Assembly (NCBI GenBank): GCA_021810905.1
Contig: JAJZQH010000007.1
Location: 70,455 to 134,454, forward strand
From: a bacterium
GTDB lineage: Bacteria > UBA10199 > 2-02-FULL-44-16 > JAAZCA01
DNA length: 64,000 nucleotides
Direction of reading: 5' to 3'
The position numbers and the translations under genes were made by a program. Every line of letters begins with the position of its first letter. The first letter of the stretch is position 1. Below, in pieces: positions 1,565 through 36,631 of the stretch. The notes under the pieces were generated by a model. The model was not told the DNA's origin. It made no database searches and was given only the letters and a program-made list of their open reading frames with translations.

Positions 1565-1658
1565 GATCTGACTCCCATCGGCGCGCCACGGGGCACCAAG
1601 CGGTCGCGGCAAGGCCTGAAGTTGCCAGCGTTACCCCTGTAATATCAAGTAAAATTAC

Positions 1659-1813: not shown

Positions 1814-1870
1814 AACTTATTTCTCCTGCCGACGATAAGGGTGAGAATCCAAAATCGGCAAGGAGAGAGC

Positions 1871-3145: not shown

Positions 3146-3364
3146 CGTCGCGCGGATCCGCCGCGACAGGAGCTTGACATTCACCATGCGCTCCACTAAT
3201 GACGCACCTTTCCCGGCGCTCAGCGAGTACAGCGCGCCGAATAGAAATCCTTTTATCTACATAGAGCAGCCTGCAGCGGGACTTAAGCTATCTGCTATTT
3301 CGTCCGCAGCGCACCGGCGTTTCCTGCGGCTGGGACTGTTTTTTTCTGATGAGGGAATACCGGC

Positions 3365-4774
3365 TTGAGTTCTGCTTTCGACACATGGGGTTCAAGGATC
3401 GCCCTGGGCGCCACGCTCCTGGGAGGCGGGCTGGGCATAGGCATGTCCTGCGAGCAGGACGAAAGCGGCGACAACACGACAATTTCCGCCGAATCCAGGA
3501 CTGATGATCCTCCAGAATCCGTCGCTGATCCAGCCGCATCGCAAGACGTCGTCGCCGTGCAGATGCCAGAGCTCGACAAGGAGAGATCAAAAGGAATCTT
3601 TGCAATACCCGCCAGCGGTAATCCCTACGAGATCAGCAGGTACGGAAGACAGGTCCTGGCGCCTGCAACTGAGTTCTTTACGACTCCCACGAGCCTCTTC
3701 CTGCAGAGCAGGGGAAGATACCGCATGGGATACGAACATCGCGTGCGCGAAAGAGACAATGTGATGTACGGCAAGCCTGGAGAACGGGCTGCGTTCAGCC
3801 GCAAGACATATATCGGCCGATTCATGAGATGGCTATATCTTCCGAAATCGATGAGGAACAGGCCCCTGACACCCGAAGATCATGAATGGCTCCGCGCCAA
3901 TGGAGCGTATTCGCAGAGCATATCAAACCGCATCCTCATCCTCCCCTATGCAGTGAGGCTTGGCGTAAATATCTACGGTTTCACGCGGACGCAGGACGAT
4001 GGGAGAAACGGCCTGGGCCACGTCGAGACCGCAGTCATGATCACTGACACCGCTTCGATCACGAGCCACATCGTCGATCTGAGCCTCTGGTCGCGGGGGC
4101 TGGGGCAGGTGGCAGGCGCCTCGAATCCGAGCCTTGTCGAGCGAGCGCTTCAGCCTGGCCGGATAGCGCCGATGAGGCGATGGATGACGTTGGGAGGTTA
4201 TGAGGGTGCGGCTAAATCTCTCACCTTGAGCCATCGCATCAGTTTAGGAAGTAATGTGCTGATGATGGTGACCGGCGCCGTTCGTCTCTATTCTGAATAC
4301 GTAAGAATGGAACGCACCGGCGCTGAAAATCTGAGCACGCTCCTGGTAGGAGGTTTCGAATTCTTCGGTGGACTCAGCTCATGCGTCCTCATTCTCTTTC
4401 TGCTGCAGCGTGCGCGCCAACTCAAAGAATCGGCTGAAGAAGAGGCAGTCGACTATCGGAAGGTGTGCGACAGGCTCGTGGGGTTCACACCATTTCCAGG
4501 CCTGATCCAGGCATGCGTCCGTGCCCCGGGCATGGTGATGGCGTCAGCGATGATAAGCATGAATGGAGTCGCTCTCGCGAGCGCATTGGACCACATGGCT
4601 GCGGGCGTTCCCGCAAGTCACGCAGTGCTGGTTCCAGTTCTGGGGCTCGCCTCTTCTGGGCTCGCGTTGGTGTCTTCGTACATGAACACGCCCGGCAAGC
4701 TTGCCGTATCGCAGTTCGTCTTCCTCGGCAGCTTCGTTCTGTGCGGCCTGCAGAGCCTCCTCGAACTCGGATGA
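3365..4774 (+). CDS. hypothetical membrane protein (N-terminal signal-like segment, soluble domain, C-terminal multi-TM region)
   Basis: 469-aa ORF with a TTG start. Hydrophobic stretches occur at the N-terminus and across the last ~170 aa. I recognise no family motif. Confidence 0.5.
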   Translation: MSSAFDTWGSRIALGATLLGGGLGIGMSCEQDESGDNTTISAESRTDDPPESVADPAASQDVVAVQMPELDKERSKGIFAIPASGNPYEISRYGRQVLAPATEFFTTPTSLFLQSRGRYRMGYEHRVRERDNVMYGKPGERAAFSRKTYIGRFMRWLYLPKSMRNRPLTPEDHEWLRANGAYSQSISNRILILPYAVRLGVNIYGFTRTQDDGRNGLGHVETAVMITDTASITSHIVDLSLWSRGLGQVAGASNPSLVERALQPGRIAPMRRWMTLGGYEGAAKSLTLSHRISLGSNVLMMVTGAVRLYSEYVRMERTGAENLSTLLVGGFEFFGGLSSCVLILFLLQRARQLKESAEEEAVDYRKVCDRLVGFTPFPGLIQACVRAPGMVMASAMISMNGVALASALDHMAAGVPASHAVLVPVLGLASSGLALVSSYMNTPGKLAVSQFVFLGSFVLCGLQSLLELG

Positions 4775-4930
4775 AAGTCGCGCTCGCCCTGAACATCTGC
4801 ACAGATCACGCACATGCTGGGGATGTAGAATTTTCGTTCGGACTCAAGCGATCGCTTTCTTTGCATCCTTCAAAAATTTGCGGACGATGCAAAAAAAGCG
4901 AGCATCTCTGTGAGATCCGAGAGCGATTTT

Positions 4931-5509
4931 TCAAACTTGCTTTCTTTTTTTCGTCCCATGGAGAACCCCCAGGAAAAAGGCCCATGCGTTCGGGTCGCCG
5001 GCAAGAAACACGGGCTCATAAACGATGCCTCTCAAAAACCATTCTGGCGCCGCGTCCAGGTTTACGAAATCAACGTTGCGCGGAAGTTCATCCACGAGTT
5101 CCTCTACGCTTCGCTTCACCCGGAAGAACTCCACGCCGCCAAGCGGCCTCCTTCCGCGCGTAATCCCGAGATCCCAGTCTGAATACTTACGCCCTCTACC
5201 CTCAGCGCGCGATCCCAGGAGACCGACCGCGATCTCTTTGTCGAAGATCGCAAGCTTTCTGGCAACGGGCATGATCTCAGATATGCGTTCGATCTTCGAT
5301 TCGTATTCCTGGGAAAGCAGAGAGACGGGATCGGCATCGAGTGCATCGCAGATGGCATAATACGCCTCTGAAAAAGGCCCCTGTCCCTTCATGAAATGAT
5401 TGAGTGTTACGCGGTTGAATCCGTGTGCCTTGGCAAATTCCGTGAGGTGGGCGTACCCGTGGCTCAAGACGAGGCGTTTCAATTTTTCGGCATCCAGATG
5501 ATAACGCAT
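4931..5509 (-). CDS. XRE-type HTH fused to an MNT-like nucleotidyltransferase domain
   Basis: The N-terminal helix-turn-helix is LTEFAKAHGFNRVTLNHFMKG. The C-terminal half carries GSRAEGRGRKYSDWDL, the GS..G...SD.D pol-beta/MNT nucleotidyltransferase signature. Confidence 0.8.
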   Translation of the reverse strand: MRYHLDAEKLKRLVLSHGYAHLTEFAKAHGFNRVTLNHFMKGQGPFSEAYYAICDALDADPVSLLSQEYESKIERISEIMPVARKLAIFDKEIAVGLLGSRAEGRGRKYSDWDLGITRGRRPLGGVEFFRVKRSVEELVDELPRNVDFVNLDAAPEWFLRGIVYEPVFLAGDPNAWAFFLGVLHGTKKRKQV

Positions 5510-5559
5510 CGCCTTTATTTTCTCGCAAACGAAGCTTGTGTCAATTATTTTATATTTAT

Positions 5560-5575
5560 GTATATTTAAATATAC
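5560..5575. promoter_or_regulatory. perfect 16-bp palindrome GTATATTTAAATATAC in a divergent AT-rich promoter region (candidate operator)
   Basis: It lies between the divergent starts of the HTH-NTase gene (5509) and the 5658 ORF. It is the only perfect palindrome in that spacer. Confidence 0.4.
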
Positions 5576-5657
5576 TCAGATCCTTTCGACGTAAAATGTC
5601 GCGCAACTTTCCCGGAAGGCTGCCGATACATCTCGGGAACAATGGAGGGATCACAAA

Positions 5658-6614
5658 ATGGATTCCAAAGTAAGAATCGACAGAATAGCGCCCAGCCTCT
5701 TTCCCGACGCTCCCTATATACACGACCGTGACGCCAGGAAAATCATTGTCCTCATGAGCGAGCGCAGGCGTTTCGACGACCTCGGCGCAATTGCTGAAAA
5801 CTGGAGGAAGTTCAGCGAAGGTTCGCGGATGCGTTTTGGGTGGCTCATGACGGCGGCGACTCAACTGCGGCTCTGGAGCGATGCCGATAGCATCGCTCCC
5901 GTGATTCCACGCTGGAAGTCCGCGGCCATAGACGCCCGGGACAGGCTGATAAAAATCGAAGGTTCGTCCGAGCTGCCCCGATGCATCGCATCCGACGATA
6001 TCGATCGGATCAGCAGGCGCGACGATCCGCTCATAACCTCTCTCGGAATCTACGCGAAAGCCTGCAAAGTGATGGATGATTACACATCCGAGACCAGAGG
6101 GCGCGAATGCCTGAAGAGAGCGGCTCTCTTATTGAAACAGTCCGCCGACCTGATGGCCGCCCTTTCTACAGAGAGTTTTCAGGATCTCCAGAAACTCTGC
6201 TCGCTGCGCCTCTCGTTCTACGATCAGAGCCGCACCGTCTTCCGCGATGCTTTCGGGGGGCATCTGAAGAGACCTGAATCGCGCGCTTTCCTTGATGCGC
6301 TGAATTCAAAGATCAGCGACATGACTTCCACCATCGAGACGGGAGCAATCATCTTCGACGGCAAAAAGAGCGGCGGCAAAGGAGGCAACGGCACGGGCTC
6401 CCTGCCGCCGATCGGAGGCATTGGAAGTCCTGGCGCTACCGGCGGTTCCGGCGGCGCCTCAGCCAAAGGGCTCGAGCAGGAAGAATCGTCTGCAGAGGAT
6501 TGCGCGTTCGATGATTCATATGCAGCTTCGACCGATCCATACGGGTTGGAGCTCGGCGCGGAGACGGCGCTCTTCGGAGTTCAGCCCTTTCCGGCGGCAA
6601 CAGGCCTGGTATAG
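5658..6614 (+). CDS. hypothetical helical protein with a Gly-rich C-terminal tail
   Basis: 318-aa ORF preceded by GGAGGG. It contains GKKSGGKGGNGTGSLPPIGGIGSPGATGGSGGAS low-complexity sequence. One Rx5H (RDAFGGH) occurs in the helical part. Confidence 0.5.
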   Translation: MDSKVRIDRIAPSLFPDAPYIHDRDARKIIVLMSERRRFDDLGAIAENWRKFSEGSRMRFGWLMTAATQLRLWSDADSIAPVIPRWKSAAIDARDRLIKIEGSSELPRCIASDDIDRISRRDDPLITSLGIYAKACKVMDDYTSETRGRECLKRAALLLKQSADLMAALSTESFQDLQKLCSLRLSFYDQSRTVFRDAFGGHLKRPESRAFLDALNSKISDMTSTIETGAIIFDGKKSGGKGGNGTGSLPPIGGIGSPGATGGSGGASAKGLEQEESSAEDCAFDDSYAASTDPYGLELGAETALFGVQPFPAATGLV

Positions 6615-6684
6615 AAGATATCCGCATCAGCAAATGAATGCTCCCCGCGGCAAGCCGCGGGGTATCACCGGCAACATCTCCGAC

Positions 6685-6756
6685 CACCCTCACCCTTCCC
6701 TCTCCCCTCAAGGGAGAGGGGGGCGGAAACCCCGCAGCAAGCTGCGGGGAATCATC
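6685..6756. repeat. 72-bp double-hairpin dispersed repeat (copy 1 of 2)
   Basis: CACCCTCACCCTTCCCTCTCCCCTCAAGGGAGAGGGGGGCGGAAACCCCGCAGCAAGCTGCGGGGAATCATC is nearly identical (2 mismatches) to 46055-46126. A related hairpin CCCCGCGGCAAGCCGCGGGG sits at 6646-6665. Confidence 0.85.
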
Positions 6757-6819
6757 TCATTGACAACATCAAGCGCTTGCTGCTAGTTGATTTCTGCTTT
6801 GAAAATTCGATCGCACGGC

Positions 6820-6970
6820 GTGCAAGGGAAGCGGGTGTGAATCCCGCGCGGTCGCGCCACTGTGATGGGCATGATGTCCGCCGCCTCAGTCACTGTCCTT
6901 TTGGGATGGGAAGACTTTGGCGGGAGAGATGGCCCTGAGCCAGGAAACCTTGCGCCGATGTTTTTTTCAG
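6820..6970 (+). promoter_or_regulatory. cobalamin (B12) riboswitch
   Basis: AAGGGAAGCGGGTGTGAATCCCGCGCGGTCGCGCCACTGTGA matches the conserved core. GAGCCAGGAAACCTTGCG matches the B12 box. The P1 candidate is CGGCGTGCAAGG / CCTTGCGCCG, followed by a T-run. It lies directly upstream of a TonB-dependent receptor. Confidence 0.85.
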
Positions 6971-7003: not shown

Positions 7004-9043
7004 ATGTCCTTGATTTTCTGTTTTCATCCATCGGCCTTCATACATCGACAAAAGATCCTCATCACCCTCTTCTGTTGTGTCGTCGCCATTCCTGTGCAGA
7101 TGGCTGCGGGGGATTGCTTCGCTTCCGCTCGCAATGACACACTAGGCGCTACGTCTGAAGAAGCGCAGCCTGCAGATATCGGCGAGGTCGAGGTGGGCGC
7201 GTCGCGGGATCACGAATCCGCGGAAATGCCCGCTGCCTTCACAACGGTCATCAAACCCGAGCGCTTCGAACGCCGCACAAAATCCGCAGCCGAGGTGCTC
7301 TCAGAAACTGCAGGCGTGGACGTCACCACCCTCGGCGGCGAGGGGAGCCTCTCCACGGTCTCCATCCGCGGCTCTTCAGCCGAAGAGGTGGCAGTCTTCG
7401 TGGACGGGGTGCGCATCAACAGCGCGCTCTACGGCTCCGTCAATTTCGCGACCATTCCGATCGACTCGATCGAGCGCATCGAGGTGATCCGCGGCGCTGC
7501 GTCAGCACGTTTCGGCACGGACGCCATCGGCGGCGTCATCAACATCGTGACTAAGAAGGCCGGGGGCAAGCGCGCCATCGACCTCAAGCTCACCGGCGCT
7601 TCATTTGATACGCTGCACACCTCGGAATCCTGGAGCGAGCCGCATGACAAATGGTCTCTCGTGCTCGCGCACAACCACCGCTCCACCGCAGGCGACTTCA
7701 CGTTCAGGAGCGCGGGCATTTCGCTGGCCGGCGGCACGGTCGCGGACCCCAAGACATACACGCGGTTCAACAACCGCTCGGTTGCAGAGGACGTGCTCGC
7801 AAAGGGGGACGTGGATTTAACTGAGCTTATGCACCTCTCCGCATCCAACGATTTTTTCTGGACCGATGCGCAGGTGCCAACGACGGAGATCGAGACCACG
7901 CTGCTCTTTCCCGCTAACCCGCTGGAGGCGCACGAGGAGATCTTCCGCGACACCGCAGGGCTGCGCGCCGCACTCGACCGGCTCTTCGTGGACGGACTCT
8001 CTCTCAAGTCGGGCGTCAGCAACGCCTACATACGCGATCATTTCACCGACCCCTCGCCCGCGATAGGCGATCCAATAGACGTCACATCGGTGGGAGTTTC
8101 GCCCGAAGCGTATCTTGAACTCATGCACTCGGCGGACGCGGGTCCGGCGAGCTTTACGACCGTTCTCCGCTATCAGTACAGATACGATCACTCCGACGAT
8201 TCATCTCCCTATCCCACCGCCCCGCTCGCGGGCGAACACGGCAGGAGCACGAACGCGGCCTTCCTCGAAGAAGAGGTCGATCTCTTCGGCGACAAACTGA
8301 GGGTGATTCCATCGGGCCGCGTGGAGACCGCATCCGACAGGACCACGCGCGCGAGCTGGCGTGCCGGCGCCGTCGGCAGCCCCGTTGAGTGGATCGACAT
8401 CAAGGCGAACGTTGGCACCGCGTTTCGCTATCCGACTTTCATGGAGCTCTATTTCCCGGATCAAGGATATCTGCGCGGCAACCCCAACCTGAACGACGAG
8501 CGATCTTTCAACTGGGACGCCGGAGTCATTGTTCGGCCGCCTCGCTCGTCAATTGAAATTTCGTATTACCAGAACCGCATCTACAACCAGATCATGTTCG
8601 TCCCTGTATCGGCCACCACGATCCAGCCCATCAACACCGGGCGCGTGAACTCGCATGGCATCGAGGCAACGGTCACTGCCGAGCCCTGGAAATGGATGCG
8701 TCTCGATGCGAACTACACCTGGCTCGACGCGATCTTCGCCAGCAACGGGCTCAAGCTCCCGGGCAGGCCGCAGCACAAGGCCAACGCGCACCTCGAACTC
8801 AAGACGGGCTGGGCGTCGATCTTCGGAGAGGTGCAGTACGTGGGTTCGTATCCGCTCAATACCTCTAACACCGTGACCATATCGAGCCATGTTGCTGCGA
8901 ACGCGGGCACCACCATCGCCTTTGCGAAGCACTTCTTTTTTACTTTTGAAGTGAAGGACGTGAACAACGTGCAGATCTACGACGCGCGCGGGTTTCCGCT
9001 GCCGCGAAGGAGTTACTGGGTGAGCGTGGGAGCGAAAACTTAA
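7004..9043 (+). CDS. btuB: TonB-dependent outer-membrane receptor, BtuB-like
   Basis: The plug domain reads VDVTTLGGEGSLSTVSIRGSSAEEVAVFVDGVRIN...IERIEVIRGAASARFGTDAIGGVINIVTKK, followed by a long beta-barrel region. The gene is controlled by the B12 riboswitch. Confidence 0.9.
   Translation: MSLIFCFHPSAFIHRQKILITLFCCVVAIPVQMAAGDCFASARNDTLGATSEEAQPADIGEVEVGASRDHESAEMPAAFTTVIKPERFERRTKSAAEVLSETAGVDVTTLGGEGSLSTVSIRGSSAEEVAVFVDGVRINSALYGSVNFATIPIDSIERIEVIRGAASARFGTDAIGGVINIVTKKAGGKRAIDLKLTGASFDTLHTSESWSEPHDKWSLVLAHNHRSTAGDFTFRSAGISLAGGTVADPKTYTRFNNRSVAEDVLAKGDVDLTELMHLSASNDFFWTDAQVPTTEIETTLLFPANPLEAHEEIFRDTAGLRAALDRLFVDGLSLKSGVSNAYIRDHFTDPSPAIGDPIDVTSVGVSPEAYLELMHSADAGPASFTTVLRYQYRYDHSDDSSPYPTAPLAGEHGRSTNAAFLEEEVDLFGDKLRVIPSGRVETASDRTTRASWRAGAVGSPVEWIDIKANVGTAFRYPTFMELYFPDQGYLRGNPNLNDERSFNWDAGVIVRPPRSSIEISYYQNRIYNQIMFVPVSATTIQPINTGRVNSHGIEATVTAEPWKWMRLDANYTWLDAIFASNGLKLPGRPQHKANAHLELKTGWASIFGEVQYVGSYPLNTSNTVTISSHVAANAGTTIAFAKHFFFTFEVKDVNNVQIYDARGFPLPRRSYWVSVGAKT
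7108..7142. repeat. half copy of the GGATTGC...CGCTCGCAATGACAC element, inside the btuB coding sequence
   Basis: GGGGGATTGCTTCGCTTCCGCTCGCAATGACACAC matches the right half of the element at 14416-14500. It encodes GDCFASARNDT just after the predicted signal peptide. Confidence 0.7.
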
Positions 9044-18696: not shown

Positions 18697-18776
18697 CTCG
18701 TGGATCGTGAATCGTGAAGGCCTCAAGTGCTCGGGCGGTTTTGCGATCCGCGAATCACAAATCACGATCCACGCGC
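18679..18776. repeat. heptamer-arm hairpin, type-1 loop (GAAGGCCTCAAGTGCTCGGGCGGTTTT)
   Basis: Arms are GGTGGATCGTGGTTCGTGACTCGTGGATCGTGAATCGTGAAGG and TTTTGCGATCCGCGAATCACAAATCACGATCCACGCG. They overlap the 3' ends of both convergent genes, and both proteins end in RGS*. Confidence 0.75.
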
Positions 18777-21700
18777 CTTTTTCATCACCTTGTAAAAATA
18801 TCCCTGGCTCACGCGCAGATTGGCGATTGCGGCGGTAGGCTTGTTGCCTGACGCCTGCAGCGCAGCTGCAAAGACAAGCGGGAGATATTCGTCAAGCTTG
18901 GCGCCTCGCTCGTAGACGAACGCGCCGCGATAGGAATCGGACTTTCGATCCTCCAAACCGTATTCCTTGATTCGACTGTATAGAGTTGTTACGGCGATAC
19001 CCAGTTCGACCGCTGCGGGCCGCGCCTTGAATCCGTTCGCTTCGTAGCACTTGGCCATGATCACGCGCTCGTAATCGCGCCACGATTTACGCGCATCATA
19101 TTCGTTATATTCGTCGATGCGCGCTAGCGGCGCCGCTGTTTCTCCGCCGCGAGCAGGCGCCGCATCCAAAGGCCATTCCTTTCGTCGTTCCTTCGCAGGG
19201 CGCTGCGGCGCAATGGACGCTCGCGCCAACGGATGGTTGTCCGGTATCGCGCGCTCGTCTATCACATCCCCTTCCGATAGCGCGCAGCATACCTGCATCA
19301 GATTCTGCAGCTCGCGCACGTTGCCCGGCCAGTCGTAAGAGAGCAGGCGCCGCATGAACCTCGGGTGCACTTCGAGGCCTCGGCCCGGCGCGGTTTCGGC
19401 TATAAATCTCACGGCGAGTTCCGCGATATCCTCGGGTCTCTCTCGCAGCGGCGGCACCTCTATCTTTATCTGGCATATTCGATAATAGAGGTCTTCGCGA
19501 AATCCCCCTGACTGAACCATCTCTTCCACGTCCTGGTTGGACGCGGTTATCACGCGCAGATCCACGTTCACGGGTTTGGTGTCGCCGATGCGCGTGCATT
19601 CTCGTTCCTGAAGCACGCGAAGCAGTTTCACCTGAAGTTCGGGCGCAAGATCGCTCACCTCGTCCAGAAAGAGCGTGCCGCCGTTCGATTCCTCTATGAG
19701 GCCGCGCTTGTCTCGCGTGGCGCCGGTGAATGCCCCTGCCTTGTAGCCGAAGAGCTCCGATTCTATGAGCGTCGCCGGGATGGCGCCGCAGTTTATCGCC
19801 ACGAATTTTCCCAGGCGGCGCTTTGCGTGGTTCGCGTGCAGCGCCCTGGCAATCAATTCTTTGCCGGAGCCCGATTCTCCGCAGATGAAGACCGACAGAT
19901 CCGTATCAGCGATCTTGTCCAGCGTCCTGAATATCCTCTGCATCGCGGGGCTTCTGCCGGCAATCGCTCCATAGTCGAATTTGAATCCGGCAGGCTCGCG
20001 GCCCAGAAGCGCCTCATATCGCTCGGCGCGGCGCGACGCATCCGCCAGCTCGCCGGAGAGCGTATTCTGTCTTTGCGCCGATGCAGCGAGCAGCTTCGCC
20101 GTCTCTATGGCGAGTCCAACCTGATCGGTGAACGCGTCGAGCAGCGTCATATCCGCGTGCGAGAACGCACCAACGTGGAAGCGGTTTTCAAGATAGAGGA
20201 CTCCGATTATCATCTTTCTCGCGCGCACCGGAAGACATAATATTGAACGCAGGGAATGAACTGCGACCGATTCTTCTTTTGAGAAGCGCTCATCCGTCAC
20301 GGCATCGTCCGTTCTTATCGGAAATCCTCCTTCGAGCACCCGCCTTGCGACCGTGCGGCTGAACGCCAGCTCGCCCTCGCGCGATTCCATGTTCCTCTGG
20401 CACGCGGAAGTTATATCCCCGTCGTCGCCCGTAAGCAGGATTGCGCCCGCCTCGGCTCCCGTGAACTCAAGTGCGTAGAAGAGCACCGTCTTGAGCACGT
20501 AGTCCAGATCGCTCTCGGCCGCTATGAGTTTGTTTATCTCAAGAATCCTGCGATAGCCGGAAGACGTATCCTGCGTTACGGGTTGAACCTGCATCGGCTG
20601 AGAAGGAGCGGTTTCGCCGGGAGCCTCCGCCCGGGAAATTGCAGCGGAAAGAGCAGCGTCGGTTTTGGAACCTATGCGCCCCCTGAGTTCTTCGAGCGCC
20701 CCCTTTTCAGCGCTGCTCGATGCGAGCGGTTCCAGCATGGAGATGATGTCCGCGAGCTCGCCCTTGCGCTTCTGCTCATGCGCCACTTCCGCGAGCGCCG
20801 TCATGATCCAGAAGCGCTGCGACGAGGCCTGTTGAACGCGCGACGCGATACCGCGCGCCTCCTCCAGCCTCTCGCGCGCCTCGTCGTATCTTCCGCCCCG
20901 CCGCGCGATGTCGCCCAGCTCCAACAGGCCCCTTGAGAGCGCGGCCCAGTCCGCGGCCCCCTTGGACGGCATGCTCCTCAGGTACTCCACCGCGGGAACG
21001 AGATGATCGAGCGCCGCCTCTATCCTTTCGCGCGCGGCCTCAACTATGCCCATGTTGATCGCGATTGCGGCGCCGCCCCGCATGTCGCCGATCATCTCGT
21101 GCAGGGCCATTCCGCGCTCGTAAAACACGACGCACTGATCGGCATCTCCGCTGATCTGGCAGGCGTTGCCGAGCCCGTTGTAGGCGCGCAGCATGAGCTC
21201 CGTGTTATGCGATCTGCGGCAGACCTCTATGCACCGCTGATATTCCTCGACTGCCGCACCGTATTCTCCCTTCGCCTGTGCGAGTTGGGCGAGATTGTAA
21301 TGCGCCCTGCCGAGCAGGAGGTCGTCGCCCATATTCTGCGCCTTCGTGAGATCTTCCGCCAGAATCTCACCCGCAGCGGAAATCTCGCCGCGCGCTACAA
21401 GCACTATTCCAAGGTCATTGTTTGTAACGGGCCTTGCATCCGGAGGGAGATTTGCCGCAGCAATGCGCGTCTTTGAAAATATCTCCTTCGCCTCGTCGAG
21501 CCTGCCTTCGAGGTAATGGATGCTGCCTATAAAATTTTCTATGGAGATCTCGCGCGATCTGTCTCCTCCCGCCTGATTGAGCGCCGCGCCCGCGTCGTGC
21601 AGTGCAGCCCTCGCGCGGTCCATCTCGGCCAGCTTGATGTACGTGCCACCCAGTCGGATGAGCACTTCGGCCCGCCACCTTGCCATCGCATCGCTCTGCG

Positions 21701-23825
21701 CGCACGCGGCTATGAGCGCCTCTACTGCGGAGAAGTGTTCGGTCGCGGTGGTGTAAGAATGGCTTATGAGATACGCCTCGCCGAGTTCCATCTGAACAGC
21801 CACGCAGCGCTCTACGTCGTCTTCGGGAACGAGCTTCAGCGCGCGCGCGAGAAAAAGCGCCGCCTGCTCGCCGCGGCCGGCCTTGAGCGCCTTTTCGCCA
21901 AGAGCTGTCGCGGCTTCGAGCGCCGCCTTTTGATCGGAGCCCCTGCTCACGTGTTCGAGTATTTCATCTTCGCTGCCGTTCGCCGCCGTAAGAGACGCGG
22001 CGATTGCGTCATGCAGCCTCAGGCGACGCTCCGAGGGGAGAGATTCGTAGATCGCCTGACCCATGAGGGCATTGTGGAAGCGGACTGCAAATCCCTCGGC
22101 GCGGTCGAGAATTCCATCGCGCAAGAGATCGGGCACCGCGCCCCTTGCCGCTGGATTGCCGCTCCACTCGGACAGTTCGACCGCGGTAGCTGGGCGTCCT
22201 GCCACGGCCAGCGCCTCGACCAGCGCCCGCCCATCGCTTCCCAGCATCGACTCGCGCTCGAGCAGCAGATCGCCGACTGTGCGCGGAATCACGGCCTTTG
22301 AAAAATCCACGCCCACGTCTTCGAATATCGTCTCGTTCCACCTCCCTCGCTCGTCGAAGAGCCCTCCGCCCGCTATGAGCGACTTCAATAGCTCGGTGAC
22401 AAAGAGCGGATTTCCCTCCGTTCGCTCGTAGAGGCCGTTCAGCAGCGGGGCCGGTGGGCTTGGAAGGCCGGTGAGCGACACCAGATATTCGCCGAGCTCG
22501 CCGCGCGTGAACGGCTCCACTACGACGCGCAAAGGAAGCATCGCTTCGAGAGTCGCCTTTGAGGTCTCGTCCGGAATAGATCTCGCCGCAACGGCTATCC
22601 ATGCGGACGCCGAGGGCGCGGGCCTTCTCGCCCTGGTTATCAGCGTGAGCAGCCGCACCCTCGCGACTTCGTCGTCGGCCAAGGCCTGCAGATCGTCGAG
22701 CATGAATATTGCCGGCCCCTTGCCTTCGGAGAGGTGTTTCGCGAGCGCATCGCACCACTCGGAAAATCTTGCCGCCTCCGAAGCGCTGGCCCACTCCACC
22801 CGAAGCTCCTTGAGCTGCGACCGATACTTGAGTTCCTTGAGCAGGCGCGTCTTTCCGCAACCGACGTCACCCATCACCAGGCAACCGCTGGATGCGCCGA
22901 GCGCGCCCTTTATTCGCGCTATCTCTTCTTCCATCTTCCACAGTTCGCCCGTCCGCCCCACGAAGCGTCCTTCGTCAGGGAGATAGGAGAGCAGCGTCTC
23001 GCGCGTCTCAAACGGATACTTGTCTCCGACGTGCCTGTTGATCTCGCGTATCACAGCAGACGCGTTGGGAAAGCGGTTCGCAGGATTCTTCTCCAGCAGC
23101 CGCATGACGATCGCATCGATCCAGGTGGGAAGAGTCGGGACAAGTTTTGAAGGAAGCGGCGGTACGAAATGAAGCTGACGCGAGAGCGTCTCGCTATTCT
23201 CTGTGCATCGAAAAGGATTGCGGCGCGTGAGCGCCGAATACCAGAGCACCCCCAGCGAATAGAGATCCGCCCTGTTGTCCGCGCGCTCCCGCGCCACGAT
23301 CTCGGGCGCCATGTACGAAGGCGTGCCTATGAGCCTGCCCCGCGGGTCTATTCCGGCCAATCCGAAATCGATAATCTTTACCTCGGGGCGCTCCTTCTCC
23401 ACGACTAGAACGTTCGCAGCTTTTATGTCGAAGTGATAGATGCGATACGAGTGGAGATATGAGAGCGCACGCAGCGCCTGCACGATGAGGCCGGTCATCG
23501 TCTCAAGATTGAAACCTTCGGAGGCCTTGATGATGTCTTTGCCTTCGATCAGTTCTGTCGTGTAATAGTATCGTTCGAGAGATTCATCGAATCCAAAGTC
23601 GAGTATCTCGGCTATGTTCGGGTGGCGCATGTCCTTGAGGACTGAAAATTCATTCTTGAACTCGTCCAGCGCGGATTTCTTGAGCGAGTCGATAGTGCTC
23701 TTCAGAAGCTTGAGCGCGCACCTGCCCCCTGGCCCTTCAACGAGATAGACATCGCTGAATCCACCGCCGCCAAGCTTTTCTATGATCCTGTATTTTGCGT
23801 CGATGTTCTTGATAACCTGTTCCAA
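18762..23825 (-). CDS. multidomain regulator: Ser/Thr protein kinase, AAA_16/STAND ATPase, TPR array, GAF, sigma-54 AAA+ activator, two Fis-type HTH
   Basis: Kinase: GGGGFSDVY, ALKLLK, HFDIKAANVLV, DFGLA, GTPSYMAPE. P-loop: GDVGCGKT. Long TPR-like region, then GAF. Sigma-54 module: GESGSGKELIARALH, ESELFGY, GAFTGA (nt 19719-19736), GGTLFLDEV. HTH: AAVELGIAVTTLYSRIKEYGL and AAIANLRVSQGYFYKVMKK. Confidence 0.9.
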   Translation of the reverse strand: MEQVIKNIDAKYRIIEKLGGGGFSDVYLVEGPGGRCALKLLKSTIDSLKKSALDEFKNEFSVLKDMRHPNIAEILDFGFDESLERYYYTTELIEGKDIIKASEGFNLETMTGLIVQALRALSYLHSYRIYHFDIKAANVLVVEKERPEVKIIDFGLAGIDPRGRLIGTPSYMAPEIVARERADNRADLYSLGVLWYSALTRRNPFRCTENSETLSRQLHFVPPLPSKLVPTLPTWIDAIVMRLLEKNPANRFPNASAVIREINRHVGDKYPFETRETLLSYLPDEGRFVGRTGELWKMEEEIARIKGALGASSGCLVMGDVGCGKTRLLKELKYRSQLKELRVEWASASEAARFSEWCDALAKHLSEGKGPAIFMLDDLQALADDEVARVRLLTLITRARRPAPSASAWIAVAARSIPDETSKATLEAMLPLRVVVEPFTRGELGEYLVSLTGLPSPPAPLLNGLYERTEGNPLFVTELLKSLIAGGGLFDERGRWNETIFEDVGVDFSKAVIPRTVGDLLLERESMLGSDGRALVEALAVAGRPATAVELSEWSGNPAARGAVPDLLRDGILDRAEGFAVRFHNALMGQAIYESLPSERRLRLHDAIAASLTAANGSEDEILEHVSRGSDQKAALEAATALGEKALKAGRGEQAALFLARALKLVPEDDVERCVAVQMELGEAYLISHSYTTATEHFSAVEALIAACAQSDAMARWRAEVLIRLGGTYIKLAEMDRARAALHDAGAALNQAGGDRSREISIENFIGSIHYLEGRLDEAKEIFSKTRIAAANLPPDARPVTNNDLGIVLVARGEISAAGEILAEDLTKAQNMGDDLLLGRAHYNLAQLAQAKGEYGAAVEEYQRCIEVCRRSHNTELMLRAYNGLGNACQISGDADQCVVFYERGMALHEMIGDMRGGAAIAINMGIVEAARERIEAALDHLVPAVEYLRSMPSKGAADWAALSRGLLELGDIARRGGRYDEARERLEEARGIASRVQQASSQRFWIMTALAEVAHEQKRKGELADIISMLEPLASSSAEKGALEELRGRIGSKTDAALSAAISRAEAPGETAPSQPMQVQPVTQDTSSGYRRILEINKLIAAESDLDYVLKTVLFYALEFTGAEAGAILLTGDDGDITSACQRNMESREGELAFSRTVARRVLEGGFPIRTDDAVTDERFSKEESVAVHSLRSILCLPVRARKMIIGVLYLENRFHVGAFSHADMTLLDAFTDQVGLAIETAKLLAASAQRQNTLSGELADASRRAERYEALLGREPAGFKFDYGAIAGRSPAMQRIFRTLDKIADTDLSVFICGESGSGKELIARALHANHAKRRLGKFVAINCGAIPATLIESELFGYKAGAFTGATRDKRGLIEESNGGTLFLDEVSDLAPELQVKLLRVLQERECTRIGDTKPVNVDLRVITASNQDVEEMVQSGGFREDLYYRICQIKIEVPPLRERPEDIAELAVRFIAETAPGRGLEVHPRFMRRLLSYDWPGNVRELQNLMQVCCALSEGDVIDERAIPDNHPLARASIAPQRPAKERRKEWPLDAAPARGGETAAPLARIDEYNEYDARKSWRDYERVIMAKCYEANGFKARPAAVELGIAVTTLYSRIKEYGLEDRKSDSYRGAFVYERGAKLDEYLPLVFAAALQASGNKPTAAIANLRVSQGYFYKVMKKARGS

Positions 23826-24042
23826 TACGCCTCCTTGTGCCGTGTCTATGTGCCAAGCAAGGATATAATATCACAATTCAAACAACGATCACTGCACATT
23901 CTTTTTATAGTATATATTACGTTTATTACTTAAATCGAACCATTTGTTTGATTTGGAGGTGATATATATACTCCATATTTTGAATTTTACCGTTATACGA
24001 TGTAACTCGATAATTATTAAGAAAAAATATTTAACAGACAAC

Positions 24043-24058
24043 TGGCATCCATATTGCT
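24043..24058 (+). promoter_or_regulatory. sigma-54 (-24/-12) promoter
   Basis: TGGCATCCATATTGCT has GG and GC with exact consensus spacing (TGGCAC-N5-TTGCW). It sits ~50 nt upstream of the 24108 start, in an AT-rich spacer divergent from the sigma-54 activator gene. Confidence 0.65.
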
Positions 24059-24107
24059 AAAATATCAAGGTGGTAGAGGGAAGATATAACGTCAGGGGGA
24101 AGCCCAG

Positions 24108-25721
24108 ATGAAGATCAATAACATCATCAAAATACCATTCATTCTCGCCTTCATTATAGGCGCTTTGTACACGGCCGGCTGCGGAGCGTCGGCATCCTCG
24201 GCCCCACCGGTTGATCTCCCCGCACCGATCACTGGAAGGGTCGACGTGTCGGCGCCTGACGCAAACGGCAACGTCACGATCACGGGCGTCGAAGGAGCGG
24301 TGCCTGCGGGCACCACGGTCGTAGCGATAAACGATAGCGTAGCAACCTCTGCAACGTTGAAATTCCTGGATAGGTTAGTCGCCAATGCCTATGCCCAGGA
24401 ACTGGGACTGCCCGTTATCTGCAGCGATCTGGGATATGCGTGCACAGTGGCCGGAACTGACGGATCGTTCGTGCTGGTAATCGCCGCGAGCGAGGGCGAT
24501 ATAATACGGCTGGGTCTGATCGATCCTACTTCCGGTGCATTCATCAGCGAATTCATCCAGATACTCGTCCCGTCGTCAGGCACGCCGCTGCCGCAGGCAA
24601 ACTGCGCCGGTCAGGGAGTGAGCGGCTCCGTAGTCGACGTGAAGATCGCACCAACTCTGGGCGTGCCCATACTGCTCAAGCAGGGGAGCGACACCAGCAC
24701 CAACGAACTGGTCATCGGATTATCGACGCCGGTCACCATACCGATAACCGGCTGCTTTGCGCATTCGCTCGCCCTTTTCAAAAGCGCAACCGCCGATGCG
24801 ATCGCGGTCACAAGCAAGGACGACAAGATCCTGTGGACCGCGAAACTCGCGAGCGGTGCGGTGTCCGGTGCACGCAGCTTTACGCTTGCAAAAGAACCTA
24901 TGCATACGATGTTCGTAGACTCGCGGACGAGCCTGCTCGTCGCGCTCAAGACCGTCGACACGGTTGAACTCGCATCCATATCGCTCGGCACGGGCGAAGT
25001 GCTGGCTACGATGTCCCCGCAGGTTGTGGGCGGCACCACGATCACCGGGCTAACCAGGAGCACAGACCTGGACATAAAGGCCATGGAGCAGGGTGTATAT
25101 CAGAATAACTACGTTGGGATGCTCATCGCGGACAACGGCAGTGGAGCAGGTGCATATGTAACTATATTTGTGCCTCAGACGCTTTCGCACAAGGGGAGCT
25201 GGGGCATAGCGGAAATAAACTCGGCTAATGCCAACGCCCCGATCGACACGATAGACGCCGGCGCCCTCTTCATTTCAGCTGCGGGCCAGAATGTTATGAG
25301 ATTCTCCGTGCTCGGCAATTCATCGGTATTGGGAAGCATTGAAGAAACCTACAATATCCAGGTATCGCCTACCATCCCTCTGTTCTTTACGGGCAGCATT
25401 GATGGTCTGACTTCCCTTTTATCGCCGCCACTGCATGTCAAATTCAATCGTTGCGTCAATGAAACCTTGCGCAACATAGCGATCTCCCAGAATATAGAAA
25501 CAGGCAAGATATCGCCGGCGATAAGCCTTATCACAACAACGTCCGGAAGCCTGTGCTTGGACCAGCTGGAGACTGACAACCCGCCGGCTCCGGTCGCGCC
25601 TGTCTGGACTTCCGGGGACGACATAGTCGCCATTGCGGTCGATACTGTTACAAAGCAGATATTCGGCGCCGACAACACTATCGGAGCGGCGCTCAATGGC
25701 AGCAGTTACTACACATGGTAA
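24108..25721 (+). CDS. hypothetical lipoprotein (predicted sigma-54-dependent target)
   Basis: MKINNIIKIPFILAFIIGALYTAGC lipobox signal, preceded by GGGGGAAG. The sequence is Thr/Ser/Val/Gly-rich and strand-like. I recognise no family. Confidence 0.65.
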   Translation: MKINNIIKIPFILAFIIGALYTAGCGASASSAPPVDLPAPITGRVDVSAPDANGNVTITGVEGAVPAGTTVVAINDSVATSATLKFLDRLVANAYAQELGLPVICSDLGYACTVAGTDGSFVLVIAASEGDIIRLGLIDPTSGAFISEFIQILVPSSGTPLPQANCAGQGVSGSVVDVKIAPTLGVPILLKQGSDTSTNELVIGLSTPVTIPITGCFAHSLALFKSATADAIAVTSKDDKILWTAKLASGAVSGARSFTLAKEPMHTMFVDSRTSLLVALKTVDTVELASISLGTGEVLATMSPQVVGGTTITGLTRSTDLDIKAMEQGVYQNNYVGMLIADNGSGAGAYVTIFVPQTLSHKGSWGIAEINSANANAPIDTIDAGALFISAAGQNVMRFSVLGNSSVLGSIEETYNIQVSPTIPLFFTGSIDGLTSLLSPPLHVKFNRCVNETLRNIAISQNIETGKISPAISLITTTSGSLCLDQLETDNPPAPVAPVWTSGDDIVAIAVDTVTKQIFGADNTIGAALNGSSYYTW

Positions 25722-25854: not shown

Positions 25855-26598
25855 ATGAATGACGGACCGATCATAATTCATGAAGATGACTGCCTGCTCG
25901 TAGTCTATAAACCCGGGGGCATGCCCGCGGTATCGCTCAAGAGCGGAGAACGCGGAACGCTCGCCTCATGGATTTTGGATATCTATCCTGAACAAGCCGA
26001 AATCGGACCTGGAAATCGCGAGGCAGGACTGTGCCACCGCCTTGATAACGACACGTCCGGGCTCATGGTGGCGGCACGCACGGCGCAATCCTATGAATCG
26101 CTGCGCGCGCAGTTTATTTCGGGAGAGATCGTCAAAGAATATACCGCTCTCGTTATCGGAATTCCTCCAGAAGAGTGCGCTATCGACGCGCCCATCGCAC
26201 ATCATCCGCGAAAGAAGGCGAAGATGGTCGTTTGCGATTCCGCAGCGCGCGCGGATGAATGGAAGGGGCGGCCCGCGCGCACATTTTTTTCAGTCGTCAA
26301 GAGATACGAACTGAATGACAAGGGACGAACCACGCATTACGCGCTTGTCTCCGTGCGAATTGAAACCGGTGTGCGGCACCAGATCCGCGCGCATATGGCG
26401 CACGTCGGCCATCCGCTCGCAGGAGACTGGCTCTACCAGAATCCCGCCAAGCGCGCCGCTGACACATTGCCGCTCGCACGTCACTTCCTGCATTGCAGCA
26501 GACTCTCATTCAGGCATCCGGCGAGCGGAGGGCTCATGAGCTTTACCTCCCCGCTGCCGGATGAGCTCCAAGATGCGCTTAACCTCATGACGGAATAA
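25855..26598 (+). CDS. RluA-family pseudouridine synthase
   Basis: HRLDNDTSGLMVAART carries the catalytic Asp motif, and GVRHQIRAHMAHVGHPLAGD is present. Confidence 0.9.
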   Translation: MNDGPIIIHEDDCLLVVYKPGGMPAVSLKSGERGTLASWILDIYPEQAEIGPGNREAGLCHRLDNDTSGLMVAARTAQSYESLRAQFISGEIVKEYTALVIGIPPEECAIDAPIAHHPRKKAKMVVCDSAARADEWKGRPARTFFSVVKRYELNDKGRTTHYALVSVRIETGVRHQIRAHMAHVGHPLAGDWLYQNPAKRAADTLPLARHFLHCSRLSFRHPASGGLMSFTSPLPDELQDALNLMTE

Positions 26599-26714
26599 CG
26601 CGGAGTAATGGTACACAGCAAGCGCCGGTCTCGACCCCTCGCCGGACGAACGGGAACGCGATGGCTCGCGTTCATCGGATTGACATGGGGGCCGTCTGTT
26701 ACTATACAGTCCGC

Positions 26715-27392
26715 ATGACCCGCAAAACCGCAAAAGTTCTGCTTTCTACAGCATTGATGCTCATCGTCGCCTCGGGAGCGTTCGCCGCTACCGGCGCGTG
26801 GACGCTCGACGACCTGAGTTCTTCCAAGGTCGGCAGCTTCCCGAAACGCTGGCGGACGTGGCCGTTGCAGAGAGGCAAAGCGGCGATGGTTTACACGGTG
26901 GCTGAAGAGAACGGAAAACGCTTCATCCATGCCGTTGACAGCGAAGACATCTCACAGCAGATCTTTTTCAACTTCGACTGGCCCATCGAAGACAGGCCCA
27001 TGCTCTCCTGGCGCTGGCGTGCAACCAAACTGCCCGAGGGCGCGGCTGAATCGAACGACGCAACAAACGACAGTGCGTGTGGCGTCTACGTCGTTGTGGG
27101 CAAATACAGCGGACACTCGATCAAGTACGTGTGGAGCACTACCCTGCCTGCAGGCTCGGTTATCTCGAGGCACGAGGGAAAGCTCAAGATCAAGGTGCTC
27201 GATAGCGGCTCCGGAAAGCTCGGACAGTGGATGAACCATTCGGTCGACGTCATGGCAGATTATCAGGCGCTCTTCGGGAAGCCCCTCGACAAGCAGCCTT
27301 CTGGCGTAGGCATTCTCACGGACGGCAACGCCGTGCACAAGCCGGCCGGATGCGACTACGCCGACTTCGCCATCAGCGGGAAGGGACGGTGA
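26715..27392 (+). CDS. secreted DUF3047-like protein
   Basis: Signal peptide is MTRKTAKVLLSTALMLIVASGAFA. LSWRWRATKLPEGA...DSACGVYVV resembles the DUF3047 signature as I remember it. Confidence 0.6.
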   Translation: MTRKTAKVLLSTALMLIVASGAFAATGAWTLDDLSSSKVGSFPKRWRTWPLQRGKAAMVYTVAEENGKRFIHAVDSEDISQQIFFNFDWPIEDRPMLSWRWRATKLPEGAAESNDATNDSACGVYVVVGKYSGHSIKYVWSTTLPAGSVISRHEGKLKIKVLDSGSGKLGQWMNHSVDVMADYQALFGKPLDKQPSGVGILTDGNAVHKPAGCDYADFAISGKGR

Positions 27393-35172: not shown

Positions 35173-35272
35173 ATTTCGTGGATCGTGGATCGTTGATCGT
35201 GGATCGTGAAGGCCACAAGCACTTCGGCGGTTTTACGATCCACGATTCACGAACCACGAATCACGTTTTTTT
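35173..35272. repeat. heptamer-arm hairpin, type-1 loop (GAAGGCCACAAGCACTTCGGCGGTTTT)
   Basis: Arms are ATTTCGTGGATCGTGGATCGTTGATCGTGGATCGTGAAGG and TTTTACGATCCACGATTCACGAACCACGAATCACG. It fills the whole spacer between the response-regulator stop and the polX start. Confidence 0.75.
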
Positions 35273-36631
35273 CTGCACGATCCCGTATTGTCTGATCTTT
35301 CGATAGAGCGTATCGCGGCCGATACCGAGCATATGCGCCGCCTGTGAGATATTCCACCCGCACTGCGTGAGCACTTCCGCTATGTGCGAAGCCTCGACCG
35401 CGCGCAACGGCGCAAGAGCGCCGGCCGATGCGGCATGTTCGTGGACGGCCTGGCGAAGCGGTCCAAGTGTTATATCCCGCGCAGCTATCGATGGAGGAAT
35501 CCCGAAGACCACGGCCCTCTCGATTGCATTCTGCAGCTCGCGCACGTTTCCCGGCCACGAATATGAGGCGAGCATGTCGCGAGCCTCTTTTGAAAAGTCA
35601 TGAAAAGGTTTGCCCGTTTTCTGAGAATAGAATTCAAGGAAGTGCTGCGCGAGAAGAAGTATATCCTCAGGCCGGTCGCGCAGCGGCGGAATGGTTATGG
35701 GCAGAACGCTCAGCCTGTAGAATAGATCCGCGCGGAATATGTTCGCCGCGACCTCGGCCTGAAGATCCTTGTTAGTCGCCGCAATCACCCTCACGTCCAC
35801 CTTTATCTCCTTGAGCCCGCCGATGCGCGTAAAGCTCCTCTCCTGGAGCACCCTCAGGAGCTTCGTCTGTATCATCGGCGAAAGATCGCCGATCTCATCG
35901 AGGAAGATCGTTCCGGTGTTGGCGAACTCGAACCTGCCCATCTGGCGCTCGAACGCGTCCGTGAATGCGCCCCGCTCGTGTCCGAAGAGTTCGTTCTCTA
36001 TGAGCGTTTCAGGCACGGCGGCGCAGCTCACCGTGACAAACGGTTTTAGCCTGCGCGGGCCGTTGTAATGAAGTGCCCTTGCGGCGAGTTCCTTGCCCAC
36101 GCCGCTCTCCCCCGTGACGAGCACCGTGGCATCGGATTCCGCGAGCTGCCTCAGGTGTTCGACCGTGTCATGCATCGCCTGGCTCTTGTATATGAACTGA
36201 TCGAATCCGTAAGATACCGACATCTCCTTCTCAAATGTGGCGATAGTCTGCCTTGCCTGACGGGACTGCGTCGCATTTACGATCTTGATCCACAGTTCCT
36301 CAAAATGGATCGGCTTGACTATGAAATCGTAGGCGCCCTTTTTGATGACGCTCACTGCGGTTTCCAGATCATTGCGGCCTGTAACGATAATTATCGCAAG
36401 CGTCGCGTCGATGCACAGTATCCGTCCTATCAATTCCATGCCAGAGACGTCTGGCAGGCCTAGATCGAGCAGCACGACGTCGAACGGATAATCCTGCAGG
36501 GTCTGCATGGCTTCGGCGGCGCTGTTCGCCGTCTTGACGTTGGCGCCCTCCGCGATGAGGCGGTCGGCGAGATTGGATGCGAAGTCCTGATCGTCATCCA
36601 CCACAAGGATGTCCATTTTCTTGTTGTCCAT
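35261..36631 (-). CDS. NtrC-family sigma-54-dependent response regulator (REC, AAA+, Fis HTH)
   Basis: REC: ILVVDDD...DVVLLDLGLPD. AAA+: GESGVGKELAARALH, ENELFGH, GTIFLDEI. HTH: AAHMLGIGRDTLYRKIRQYG. The sigma-54 contact loop reads GAFTDA (nt 35954-35971) instead of GAFTGA. Confidence 0.9.
   Translation of the reverse strand: MDNKKMDILVVDDDQDFASNLADRLIAEGANVKTANSAAEAMQTLQDYPFDVVLLDLGLPDVSGMELIGRILCIDATLAIIIVTGRNDLETAVSVIKKGAYDFIVKPIHFEELWIKIVNATQSRQARQTIATFEKEMSVSYGFDQFIYKSQAMHDTVEHLRQLAESDATVLVTGESGVGKELAARALHYNGPRRLKPFVTVSCAAVPETLIENELFGHERGAFTDAFERQMGRFEFANTGTIFLDEIGDLSPMIQTKLLRVLQERSFTRIGGLKEIKVDVRVIAATNKDLQAEVAANIFRADLFYRLSVLPITIPPLRDRPEDILLLAQHFLEFYSQKTGKPFHDFSKEARDMLASYSWPGNVRELQNAIERAVVFGIPPSIAARDITLGPLRQAVHEHAASAGALAPLRAVEASHIAEVLTQCGWNISQAAHMLGIGRDTLYRKIRQYGIVQKKT

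Follow-up and report, generated by a model that had tools for sequence, protein, structure and literature searches.

Which gene does a protein serve that joins a Hanks-type Ser/Thr kinase and a STAND switch to a complete sigma-54 activator in one chain, and by what route might a signal pass along it? The question is raised by positions 18,762 to 25,721 of a 64,000-nucleotide stretch of contig JAJZQH010000007.1 (hereafter the window), where a gene for such an activator of 1687 amino acids (aa) and a gene for a 537-aa probable lipoprotein diverge from a control region with a predicted -24/-12 promoter. The reading favored here, with a probability of about 0.6, is that the activator is a single-polypeptide signal-to-transcription device, driven by its STAND module, whose conserved job is switching on the divergent sigma-54-dependent lipoprotein gene. 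The activator gene and its modules were assigned as follows, with HTH standing for helix-turn-helix and TPR for tetratricopeptide repeat.

18762-23825, minus strand: activator gene, kinase-STAND-TPR-GAF-sigma54, 1687 aa, TTG start (open reading frame, Pfam and homologues)
23016-23792, minus strand: Hanks-type Ser/Thr kinase domain, residues 12-270, non-RD (HFD) (Pfam Pkinase)
21981-22970, minus strand: STAND nucleotide-binding oligomerization module (P-loop nucleotide-binding oligomerization domain, helical arm and winged helix), residues ~286-615 (AAA_16, AlphaFold2 model and Foldseek)
20640-21971, minus strand: TPR sensor array, residues ~619-1062 (TPR_12, TPR_MalT and AlphaFold2 model)
20103-20513, minus strand: GAF domain, residues 1105-1241 (Pfam GAF and GAF_2, collinearity with the NifA model)
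19236-19964, minus strand: sigma-54 AAA+ domain with lid, residues 1288-1530 (Sigma54_activat and AAA_lid_14)
18960-19079, minus strand: Fis-type HTH_8, residues 1583-1622 (HTH_8 profile)
18774-18917, minus strand: second, diverged Fis-type HTH, residues 1637-1684 (...LRVSQGYFYKVMK) (hhalign)

The open reading frame (ORF) is uninterrupted and uniform in GC content, and entry P0001 of the protein collection is a product of the same 1687 aa. The sequence AAGGAGG lies 5 nt upstream of the TTG start (23830-23836 in plus strand numbering). A Pfam scan placed Pkinase, an AAA_16/nSTAND-type P-loop, TPRs, GAF, Sigma54_activat and AAA_lid_14 in a single frame, in agreement with the claim of an earlier note on this DNA that kinase and sigma-54 modules are fused in one ORF. 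All of the kinase, P-loop and activator motifs quoted in that note (G-loop, ALK, HFDIK, DFG, APE, GDVGCGKT and GAFTGA) were found. Every module on its domain list was confirmed, but the list had overlooked the second, diverged Fis-type HTH. The kinase, STAND and AAA+ enzymatic modules are catalytically competent at the sequence level.

The search for homologues covered 5.8 billion protein clusters. More than 100 clusters had the same Pfam content, with lengths of 1620-1730 aa, identities of 33-74% and coverage of approximately 100%. They came from JGI, NCBI, ENA and Logan assemblies, so the domain order recurs in other genomes. The earlier note had raised misassembly or a frameshift as a concern; with more than 100 full-length homologues in the same order, the activator is judged to be a real protein and not an assembly chimera. 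Where family members were named at all they were called 'sigma 54-interacting transcriptional regulator', and in one JGI record (P0013) 'PknK'. Taxonomy labels were limited to 'Deltaproteobacteria', 'Pseudomonadota', 'uncultured Myxococcales' or 'bacterium'. Residue conservation was scored in an alignment of 81 full-length family members. The kinase and AAA+ domains were the best-conserved parts, with mean identities to the window protein of 57% and 62%, respectively, and nearly always co-occurred across the family.

The Pkinase match covered residues 12-253 (E 6e-40, 137.8 bits). Residues G21, K39, E59, H131, D133, K135, N138, D153-F154-G155, T168, P174-E175 and R251 were invariant in the 81 sequences. 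Residue 132, which precedes the catalytic Asp, was F in 67, L in 10, Y in 3 and C in 1 of the sequences and R in none (0/81). The domain thus has HFD instead of the arginine-aspartate (RD) motif HRD and is a non-RD kinase. Its activation loop is short, and the only phosphorylatable residues there are the invariant GT and S170. Between the kinase and the STAND P-loop, residues 273-283 (22977-23009, minus strand) form the motif E-T-x-x-T-L-L-S-Y-L-P, which was invariant in 81/81 sequences and is a candidate phospho-acceptor or docking segment.

The AAA_16/nSTAND-type P-loop lies around residues 289-425 and scored 32.9 bits against a cutoff of 32.6 when this region was scanned alone. In its Walker A motif G319, G322, G324 and R327 were invariant, while K325 was K in 77 and R in 4 sequences. 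The Walker B motif hhhhDD was largely retained (residue 377 D in 68 and E in 7, residue 378 D in 49 and E in 12). TPR_MalT and TPR_12 matches spanned residue 646 to about 1021, and LGN/Pins-type TPR matches were also found. A PDB sequence search with the STAND-TPR region returned TPR proteins and no match to a nucleotide-binding oligomerization domain (NOD), so the STAND assignment needed the AlphaFold2 model and Foldseek. The model of residues 275-1095 had a predicted local distance difference test score (pLDDT) of 90.5 and a predicted template modeling score of 0.83. It comprised a P-loop alpha/beta domain with five strands, a helical arm, a small element resembling a winged helix and a long helical repeat. 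The best Foldseek match in the PDB was the STAND NOD-TPR protein 6mfv_A (E 4.6e-13 over 733 columns), with further matches to SAMD9, Avs3 and Apaf-1. STAND membership of the N-terminal module is therefore supported by motifs and by the modeled fold. The linker that follows, residues 1041-1095 before the GAF domain, is poorly conserved, Ser/Thr/Pro-rich and modeled with low confidence.

The Pfam GAF match lies at residues 1106-1240. Sigma54_activat (PF00158) matched residues 1288-1456 over the full model (1-168, E 9e-69), followed by AAA_lid_14 at 1461-1530. The Walker A motif GESGSGKE, the Walker B DE and the arginines R1443, R1449 and R1504 were invariant in the family alignment. In the GAFTGA motif (1364-1369) the G, F, T, G and A were likewise invariant, and position 2 (A1365) was A in 53 and S in 28 sequences. 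HTH_8 scored 23.7 bits against a cutoff of 22 when the C-terminus was scanned alone. The last ~50 residues are highly conserved (...LxVSQGYFYKVMK; L1670, S1673 and G1675 invariant), and a profile of this tail aligned with the HTH_8 profile (hhalign probability 96.8%, E 2e-10), which means that the protein ends in tandem HTHs. The C-terminal 597 residues matched FleQ, NtrC, NifA and ZraR in the PDB (E 1e-66 to 1e-72). In its domains and motifs the C-terminal third is a complete enhancer-binding protein of the NifA/NorR type, with GAF, AAA+ with GAFTGA and tandem Fis-type HTHs.

The control region and the divergent gene contain the following features.

23826-24042, no strand: AT-rich divergent control region with conserved blocks (footprinting among the 7 closest loci)
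24043-24058, plus strand: predicted -24/-12 sigma-54 promoter TGGCATCCATATTGCT (strict consensus, equivalents in 16 other loci)
24108-25721, plus strand: target gene, 537-aa probable lipoprotein (ORF, family alignment and AlphaFold2 model)
24108-24182, plus strand: predicted signal peptide and Cys25 (hydrophobic N-terminus, lipobox-like motif)
24219-24572, plus strand: modeled Ig-like beta-sandwich, residues ~38-155 (AlphaFold2)
24615-25718, plus strand: modeled beta-propeller, residues ~170-537 (AlphaFold2 and Foldseek)

The element TGGCATCCATATTGCT is 218 bp from the activator start codon and 49 nt before the lipoprotein ATG at 24108. It is a strict match, as the earlier note had claimed. 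The pattern TGGCAY-N5-TTGCW occurred twice in the window compared to 0.14 matches expected, and 0 of 100 shuffles reached two. The looser pattern TGG-N9-TGCW was at chance level in the window, so significance rests on the full consensus. The transcription start site is predicted at about 24068-24070. The whole intergenic region (23826-24107) is 282 bp with a GC content of 34% compared to 58% for the window. Sigma-70-like matches in the control region were at chance level only. Blocks at 23861-23878, 23905-23959 and 23973-23992 (window coordinates) were conserved among the 7 closest loci and are candidate, unproven, enhancer sites and activator's own promoter. The block at 23861-23878, in which several relatives have a TATG-N4-CATA palindrome, may serve as promoter or operator of the activator gene itself.

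Nine homologue contigs with 35-74% identity to the window protein were compared. In 8 of the 9 a divergent upstream gene with no Pfam match lay 140-520 bp away, while the ninth (L014) has an MgtC/DUF4010 gene in the divergent position. The eight divergent products were homologous to the window lipoprotein over at least the first ~150 residues (CG..SAPPVDLPAPITGR...), and each of these loci had, 25-60 nt before the start codon, a GG-N10-GC element in full or near agreement with the sigma-54 consensus. The called lipoprotein start at L004 is evidently too far upstream. A long leader separates the promoter from the lipoprotein start at L008 and L009, and at L012 a 44-aa ORF (5668-5802) lies between the two. 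A reverse search with the lipoprotein alignment gave 5 loci in GTDB species genomes and 6 in JGI metagenomes. Wherever the contig reached far enough these held the divergent activator and a canonical promoter. L007 only appears to be an exception: the match there is the second copy of a tandem lipoprotein pair, and the 4-kb contig stops short of the promoter. Tandem lipoprotein paralogues were seen at L007 (43-3250) and at L022 (1210-4720), and one metagenome-assembled genome (MAG), CAYWIG01, carries the two separate loci L007 and L009.

In total, 17 distinct loci including the window had activator, lipoprotein and promoter, with activator identities of 38-74%. The -24/-12 elements lay 25-136 nt (most 25-60) before the mapped lipoprotein start. 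GG and GC were kept in 17/17 and the strict pattern in 13/17, compared to about 0.005 strict matches expected in 17 such regions at the window's own background rate. As the 5-nt spacer varied between loci while GG and GC were kept, the -24/-12 elements appear to be under selection and not merely shared through recent common descent. Flanking genes were otherwise unrelated between the more distant loci, which points to the activator-lipoprotein pair as the conserved unit. The promoter and lipoprotein are thus conserved beside the activator, and the earlier description of the locus as a self-contained regulator-plus-target module is strongly supported by the 17 loci, with activator identity down to 38-40%. 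These comparisons make it highly probable that the divergent lipoprotein gene has this protein as its dedicated sigma-54 activator.

The lipoprotein had no match in Pfam or NCBIfam, in line with the family of unknown type given to it in the earlier note. It begins with a hydrophobic helix (residues 8-21 in the AlphaFold2 model) and an ...AGC lipobox-like motif. C25 was invariant in 32 sequences, and the window copy has an atypical T at position -3. The family alignment showed further invariant cysteines at C105, C112, C166 and C216. The model had a pLDDT of 85.7 and comprised the signal helix, a beta-sandwich and a beta-propeller. Foldseek matched it to generic WD40 propellers only and gave no functional lead, and distant family members had only weak Pfam matches to Big_6 and NHL. 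The family is small: clustering at 90% identity gives 38 clusters, each of them named 'hypothetical'. When 1.84 billion representatives at 50% identity were searched with a profile, 265 proteins were found, about 50 of them full length, and the remaining matches shared the N-terminal domain only. From the model, the target is probably a lipoprotein of the envelope that combines an Ig-like domain with a propeller. No intrinsic terminator was found after the gene (25721).

Variants of the activator were also found. The L020 product (2478-6731, minus strand; also P0029) is an intact 1417-aa ORF from which the entire sigma-54 AAA+ domain has been lost in frame, with kinase, STAND, TPR, GAF and the C-terminal HTH region retained. 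Proteins P0049-P0059 (about 1490-1620 aa, 61-68% query coverage) have no GAF domain. The GAF-less L015 (6001-10818) retained the lipoprotein pairing and a TGGCATCTAATTTGCT promoter. These variants indicate that modules can be lost separately. In a distant clade, the regulator at L023 (4373-5000) diverges from flhA (FHIPEP), which has a strict sigma-54 promoter of its own, TGGCATGATAGTTGCT. The distant clade (L023 and L014) is syntenic with sspB-xseA-xseB, and its regulators may have other targets.

A mechanism can be proposed by analogy with MalT-type STAND regulators (PMC4381067), GAF-repressed NorR (PMC2941729) and bacterial enhancer-binding proteins (bEBPs) in general (PMC7175178). In the likeliest version the activator ring would be assembled through STAND oligomerization, and GAF and the kinase would be modulators. 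The C-terminal third would bind the AT-rich region upstream of 24043, and ATP hydrolysis by the AAA+ domain would open the closed complex of sigma-54 RNA polymerase at TGGCAT-N5-TTGCT. The N-terminal 1,060 residues would act as a PknK-like unit in which a MalT-type STAND switch follows the non-RD Hanks kinase in the same chain. The TPR sensor would bind a ligand, probably a peptide or protein, upon which the NOD would exchange ADP for ATP and oligomerize. The oligomer would gather the AAA+ domains and/or lift GAF-mediated repression, giving an active hexamer on the enhancer. With no RD arginine and no activation-loop acceptor beyond the invariant GT motif, the kinase would be activated by induced proximity within the oligomer and could phosphorylate the activator itself or other substrates, locking or broadcasting the signal. 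We infer what is sensed, in which order the steps occur and what phosphorylation does, and this specific model of STAND-driven ring assembly is tentative, with odds somewhat short of even.

Several observations weigh against a STAND-driven, dedicated device. Nothing singles out STAND oligomerization as the primary switch over GAF ligand binding or phosphorylation, and we infer its place in the scheme. All activator carriers are uncultured MAGs or metagenome contigs. The L020 variant faces a lipoprotein gene with a canonical TGGCACTCTACTTGCT promoter, from which either the lipoprotein promoter can be served by another activator or the N-terminal part also has a separate function. At L022 (39% identity; 1210-4720) there are two lipoprotein paralogues and no recognizable -24/-12 element, and the two distant-clade loci (33-35% identity) face MgtC or flhA instead. 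Tests of the control region established no upstream activating sequence or enhancer. Owing to the high AT content of the 12 control regions compared, unbiased k-mer coverage did not exceed that of shuffles and gave no enhancer motif. The word T[GA][GA]ACA[AT] was enriched (19 compared to 6.9 ± 2.4), but it was chosen post hoc. In closer relatives its distances upstream of the -24 element are about 100-114 and 53-65 nt, compared to no forward-strand match and one reverse-strand match ~200 nt upstream of that element in the window's own control region.

A different use of the same parts would make the kinase the cis input, with autophosphorylation of the linker, GAF or AAA+ domain as the primary switch and the STAND-TPR part only regulating the kinase. 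Such a device would be a cis counterpart of the Ser/Thr kinases that act on FHA-containing activators in Myxococcus. The invariant catalytic residues of the kinase fit this, as do the invariant E273-T274-x-x-T277-L-L-S280-Y281-L-P283 between kinase and NOD, the Ser/Thr/Pro-rich low-confidence linker at 1041-1095 and the PknK-like label from one source. The C-terminal region of Mycobacterium tuberculosis PknK has itself been proposed to regulate its kinase, and kinase-to-enhancer-binding-protein signaling in trans was reportedly described in myxobacteria by Jelsbak et al. 2005. The Pfam scan, however, found neither a phospho-acceptor module nor a phospho-reader (FHA), activation-loop phosphorylation does not usually gate non-RD kinases, and the conserved NOD P-loop and Walker B would be left unexplained. 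The kinase as primary switch is considered unlikely, although it is the most probable of the alternatives. The STAND-TPR sensor, perhaps with GAF, could also drive two parallel outputs, lipoprotein transcription and phosphorylation of other proteins, with the kinase not controlling the AAA+ ring. The AAA+-less variant, which keeps kinase, STAND, TPR, GAF and HTH intact, and the GAF-less variants (P0049-P0059 and L015) can be read in this way. Against this, kinase and AAA+ are the best-conserved domains (57% and 62%) and almost always occur together, and no conserved kinase substrate gene lies nearby, so separate outputs seem rather unlikely.

If the adjacency were not regulatory, another activator, for instance the NtrC-type protein at 35261-36631, would serve the promoter and the large protein would regulate something else. 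The AAA+-less L020 still has the promoter, the enhancer site is unproven and distant family members face other genes. Yet the divergent pairing is found in 17 loci while the flanks change completely, lipoprotein-side searches return the activator wherever the contig reaches far enough, and divergent activator-target pairs are a common arrangement for dedicated enhancer-binding proteins, which leaves a non-regulatory adjacency improbable. An anti-phage STAND (Avs-like) or kinase defense system is far less probable again. Individual domains were matched by the PADLOC kinase models PD-T4-6, mad6 and MkoA and by Avs3 or SAMD9 structures, but the PADLOC matches were generic, at the level of the kinase or AAA+ domain, with none over the full length. 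There is no effector nuclease or protease, and the neighbors are housekeeping genes (a CDF transporter, a class II aminoacyl-tRNA synthetase of the Asp/Lys/Asn type and a pseudouridine synthase). The locus also keeps its synteny over the range of 38-74% identity and has a complete sigma-54 output together with a conserved promoter target. A chimera, frameshift artefact or pseudogene would have to coexist with more than 100 independent full-length homologues of the same order and length (1620-1730 aa), with catalytic motifs invariant in every module and with uniform GC across the gene. Artefact was ruled out for practical purposes by the homologues of the same architecture.

Elsewhere in the window an NtrC-type response-regulator activator (REC-Sigma54_activat-HTH_8) was predicted at 35261-36631 (minus strand), indicating that the organism also has a conventional sigma-54 system. 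Use of sigma-54 by the organism is thus represented in the window by an ordinary activator and by a second strict -24/-12 match, TGGCACGTAGCTTGCT, which is intergenic (55944-55959, minus strand). The latter lies about 150 nt upstream of a Cys/Met-metabolism pyridoxal phosphate enzyme gene (54492-55793), which is followed by an OmpA-domain gene (53129-54481). A CHASE4-HAMP-PAS histidine kinase is encoded near this second promoter region (57119-59323, minus strand). Downstream of the lipoprotein gene, PseudoU_synth_2 and DUF3047 genes (25855-27392) were syntenic in the closest relatives only (L001 and L002, 65-74% identity) and are probably outside the regulated unit. A cobalamin riboswitch (6794-6970, plus strand; Rfam RF00174, 79.7 bits) is directly upstream of a 679-aa ORF (7004-9043). 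A 1152-aa ORF (42516-45974, minus strand) had no Pfam match at E <= 1e-4. No rRNA was found in the 64-kb window.

Among known systems the C-terminal half is closest to the group 3 bEBPs (NifA, NorR and FhlA; GAF-AAA+-HTH), with which it shares GAFTGA, Walker A and B, R-fingers, HTH_8 and a divergent -24/-12 target. Residues 1092-1625 were collinear with positions 5-530 of the 534 in the NCBIfam NifA model TIGR01817. NifA identity was rejected, as TIGR01817 scored 337.7 bits compared to a cutoff of 528.85 and no NifA-type TGT-N10-ACA site occurred in the 17 control regions (1.7 expected). By homology this half is a member of the bEBP family, group 3, GAF type, and is not NifA. The activator differs from group 3 bEBPs in its additional 1,090-residue kinase-STAND-TPR N-terminus and its second HTH, and in having a lipoprotein and not nif, nor or hyc genes as its target. 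Tandem C-terminal HTHs were without counterpart in the classical activators compared.

Mycobacterium tuberculosis PknK has kinase, P-loop NTPase and TPR in the same order, a likeness drawn from description and not from sequence. Unlike the activator, it has no GAF, sigma-54 AAA+ or HTH domain, and it exerts its effect by phosphorylating VirS, a separate regulator. MalT and other STAND transcription factors such as AfsR resemble the activator in their NOD and repeat sensor, and the activator has a TPR_MalT match and a 6mfv-like fold. AfsR is phosphorylated by the kinase AfsK, whereas in the activator the kinase sits in cis. The output also differs: a sigma-54 AAA+ ring with Fis-type HTHs takes the place of a LuxR or SARP domain that works on sigma-70 RNA polymerase. 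In MalT, inducer-dependent, ATP-driven oligomerization delivers the DNA-binding domains to the promoter (PMC4381067). The FHA-domain enhancer-binding proteins of Myxococcus xanthus likewise link Ser/Thr-kinase signaling to sigma-54 activators, but they use a separate kinase and an FHA phospho-threonine reader, in contrast to the fused kinase without FHA described here.

Activators of sigma-54 are the textbook case of a signal leading to AAA+ ring assembly, and the accepted control modules are receiver, PAS/V4R/ACT, GAF and trans-acting partners. No description of a kinase-STAND-sigma54 fusion was found in full-text searches of the literature, but passing mentions in myxobacterial genome papers are possible. 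Kinase-sigma54 fusions have reportedly been noted in such papers. A 2020 review lists five bEBP classes according to their regulatory part (response regulator (RR)/PRD; PAS/V4R/ACT; GAF; none; RR without DNA-binding domain) (PMC7175178). The activator shares their clade-6 AAA+ core and HTH output, but none of the five has a kinase or STAND regulatory module. The earlier statement that no member with the full architecture has been characterized therefore held in the literature covered. Each domain and the overall logic of enhancer-binding proteins were already known, and databases already list the family by a generic name. The new findings are that the architecture defines a conserved family, that the protein ends in a tandem HTH, that its kinase is non-RD and that a promoter-lipoprotein target is conserved with it.

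In its fullest form, which is possible but doubtful, the proposal is that of a sixth bEBP control mode in an uncultured delta-proteobacterium-like lineage. A STAND NOD-TPR switch sensing a peptide or protein cue would assemble a sigma-54 AAA+ ring on DNA held by the tandem HTHs, a proximity-activated non-RD kinase would mark the phosphoproteome, and the system would serve a single envelope lipoprotein, a member of a new Ig-plus-propeller family. For that lipoprotein family, which has no annotation of any kind, the pairing provides a first regulatory context. As all carriers are uncultured, work on the system must be heterologous. The activator fuses three paradigms in one chain, namely Hanks kinase signaling, STAND/NLR-type (nucleotide-binding leucine-rich repeat) oligomerization switches and sigma-54 activation, and it has a single conserved and easily assayed promoter target. 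It is a compact system for asking if a STAND switch is able to drive an AAA+ ring, what controls a non-RD bacterial kinase and what tandem Fis-type HTHs recognize.

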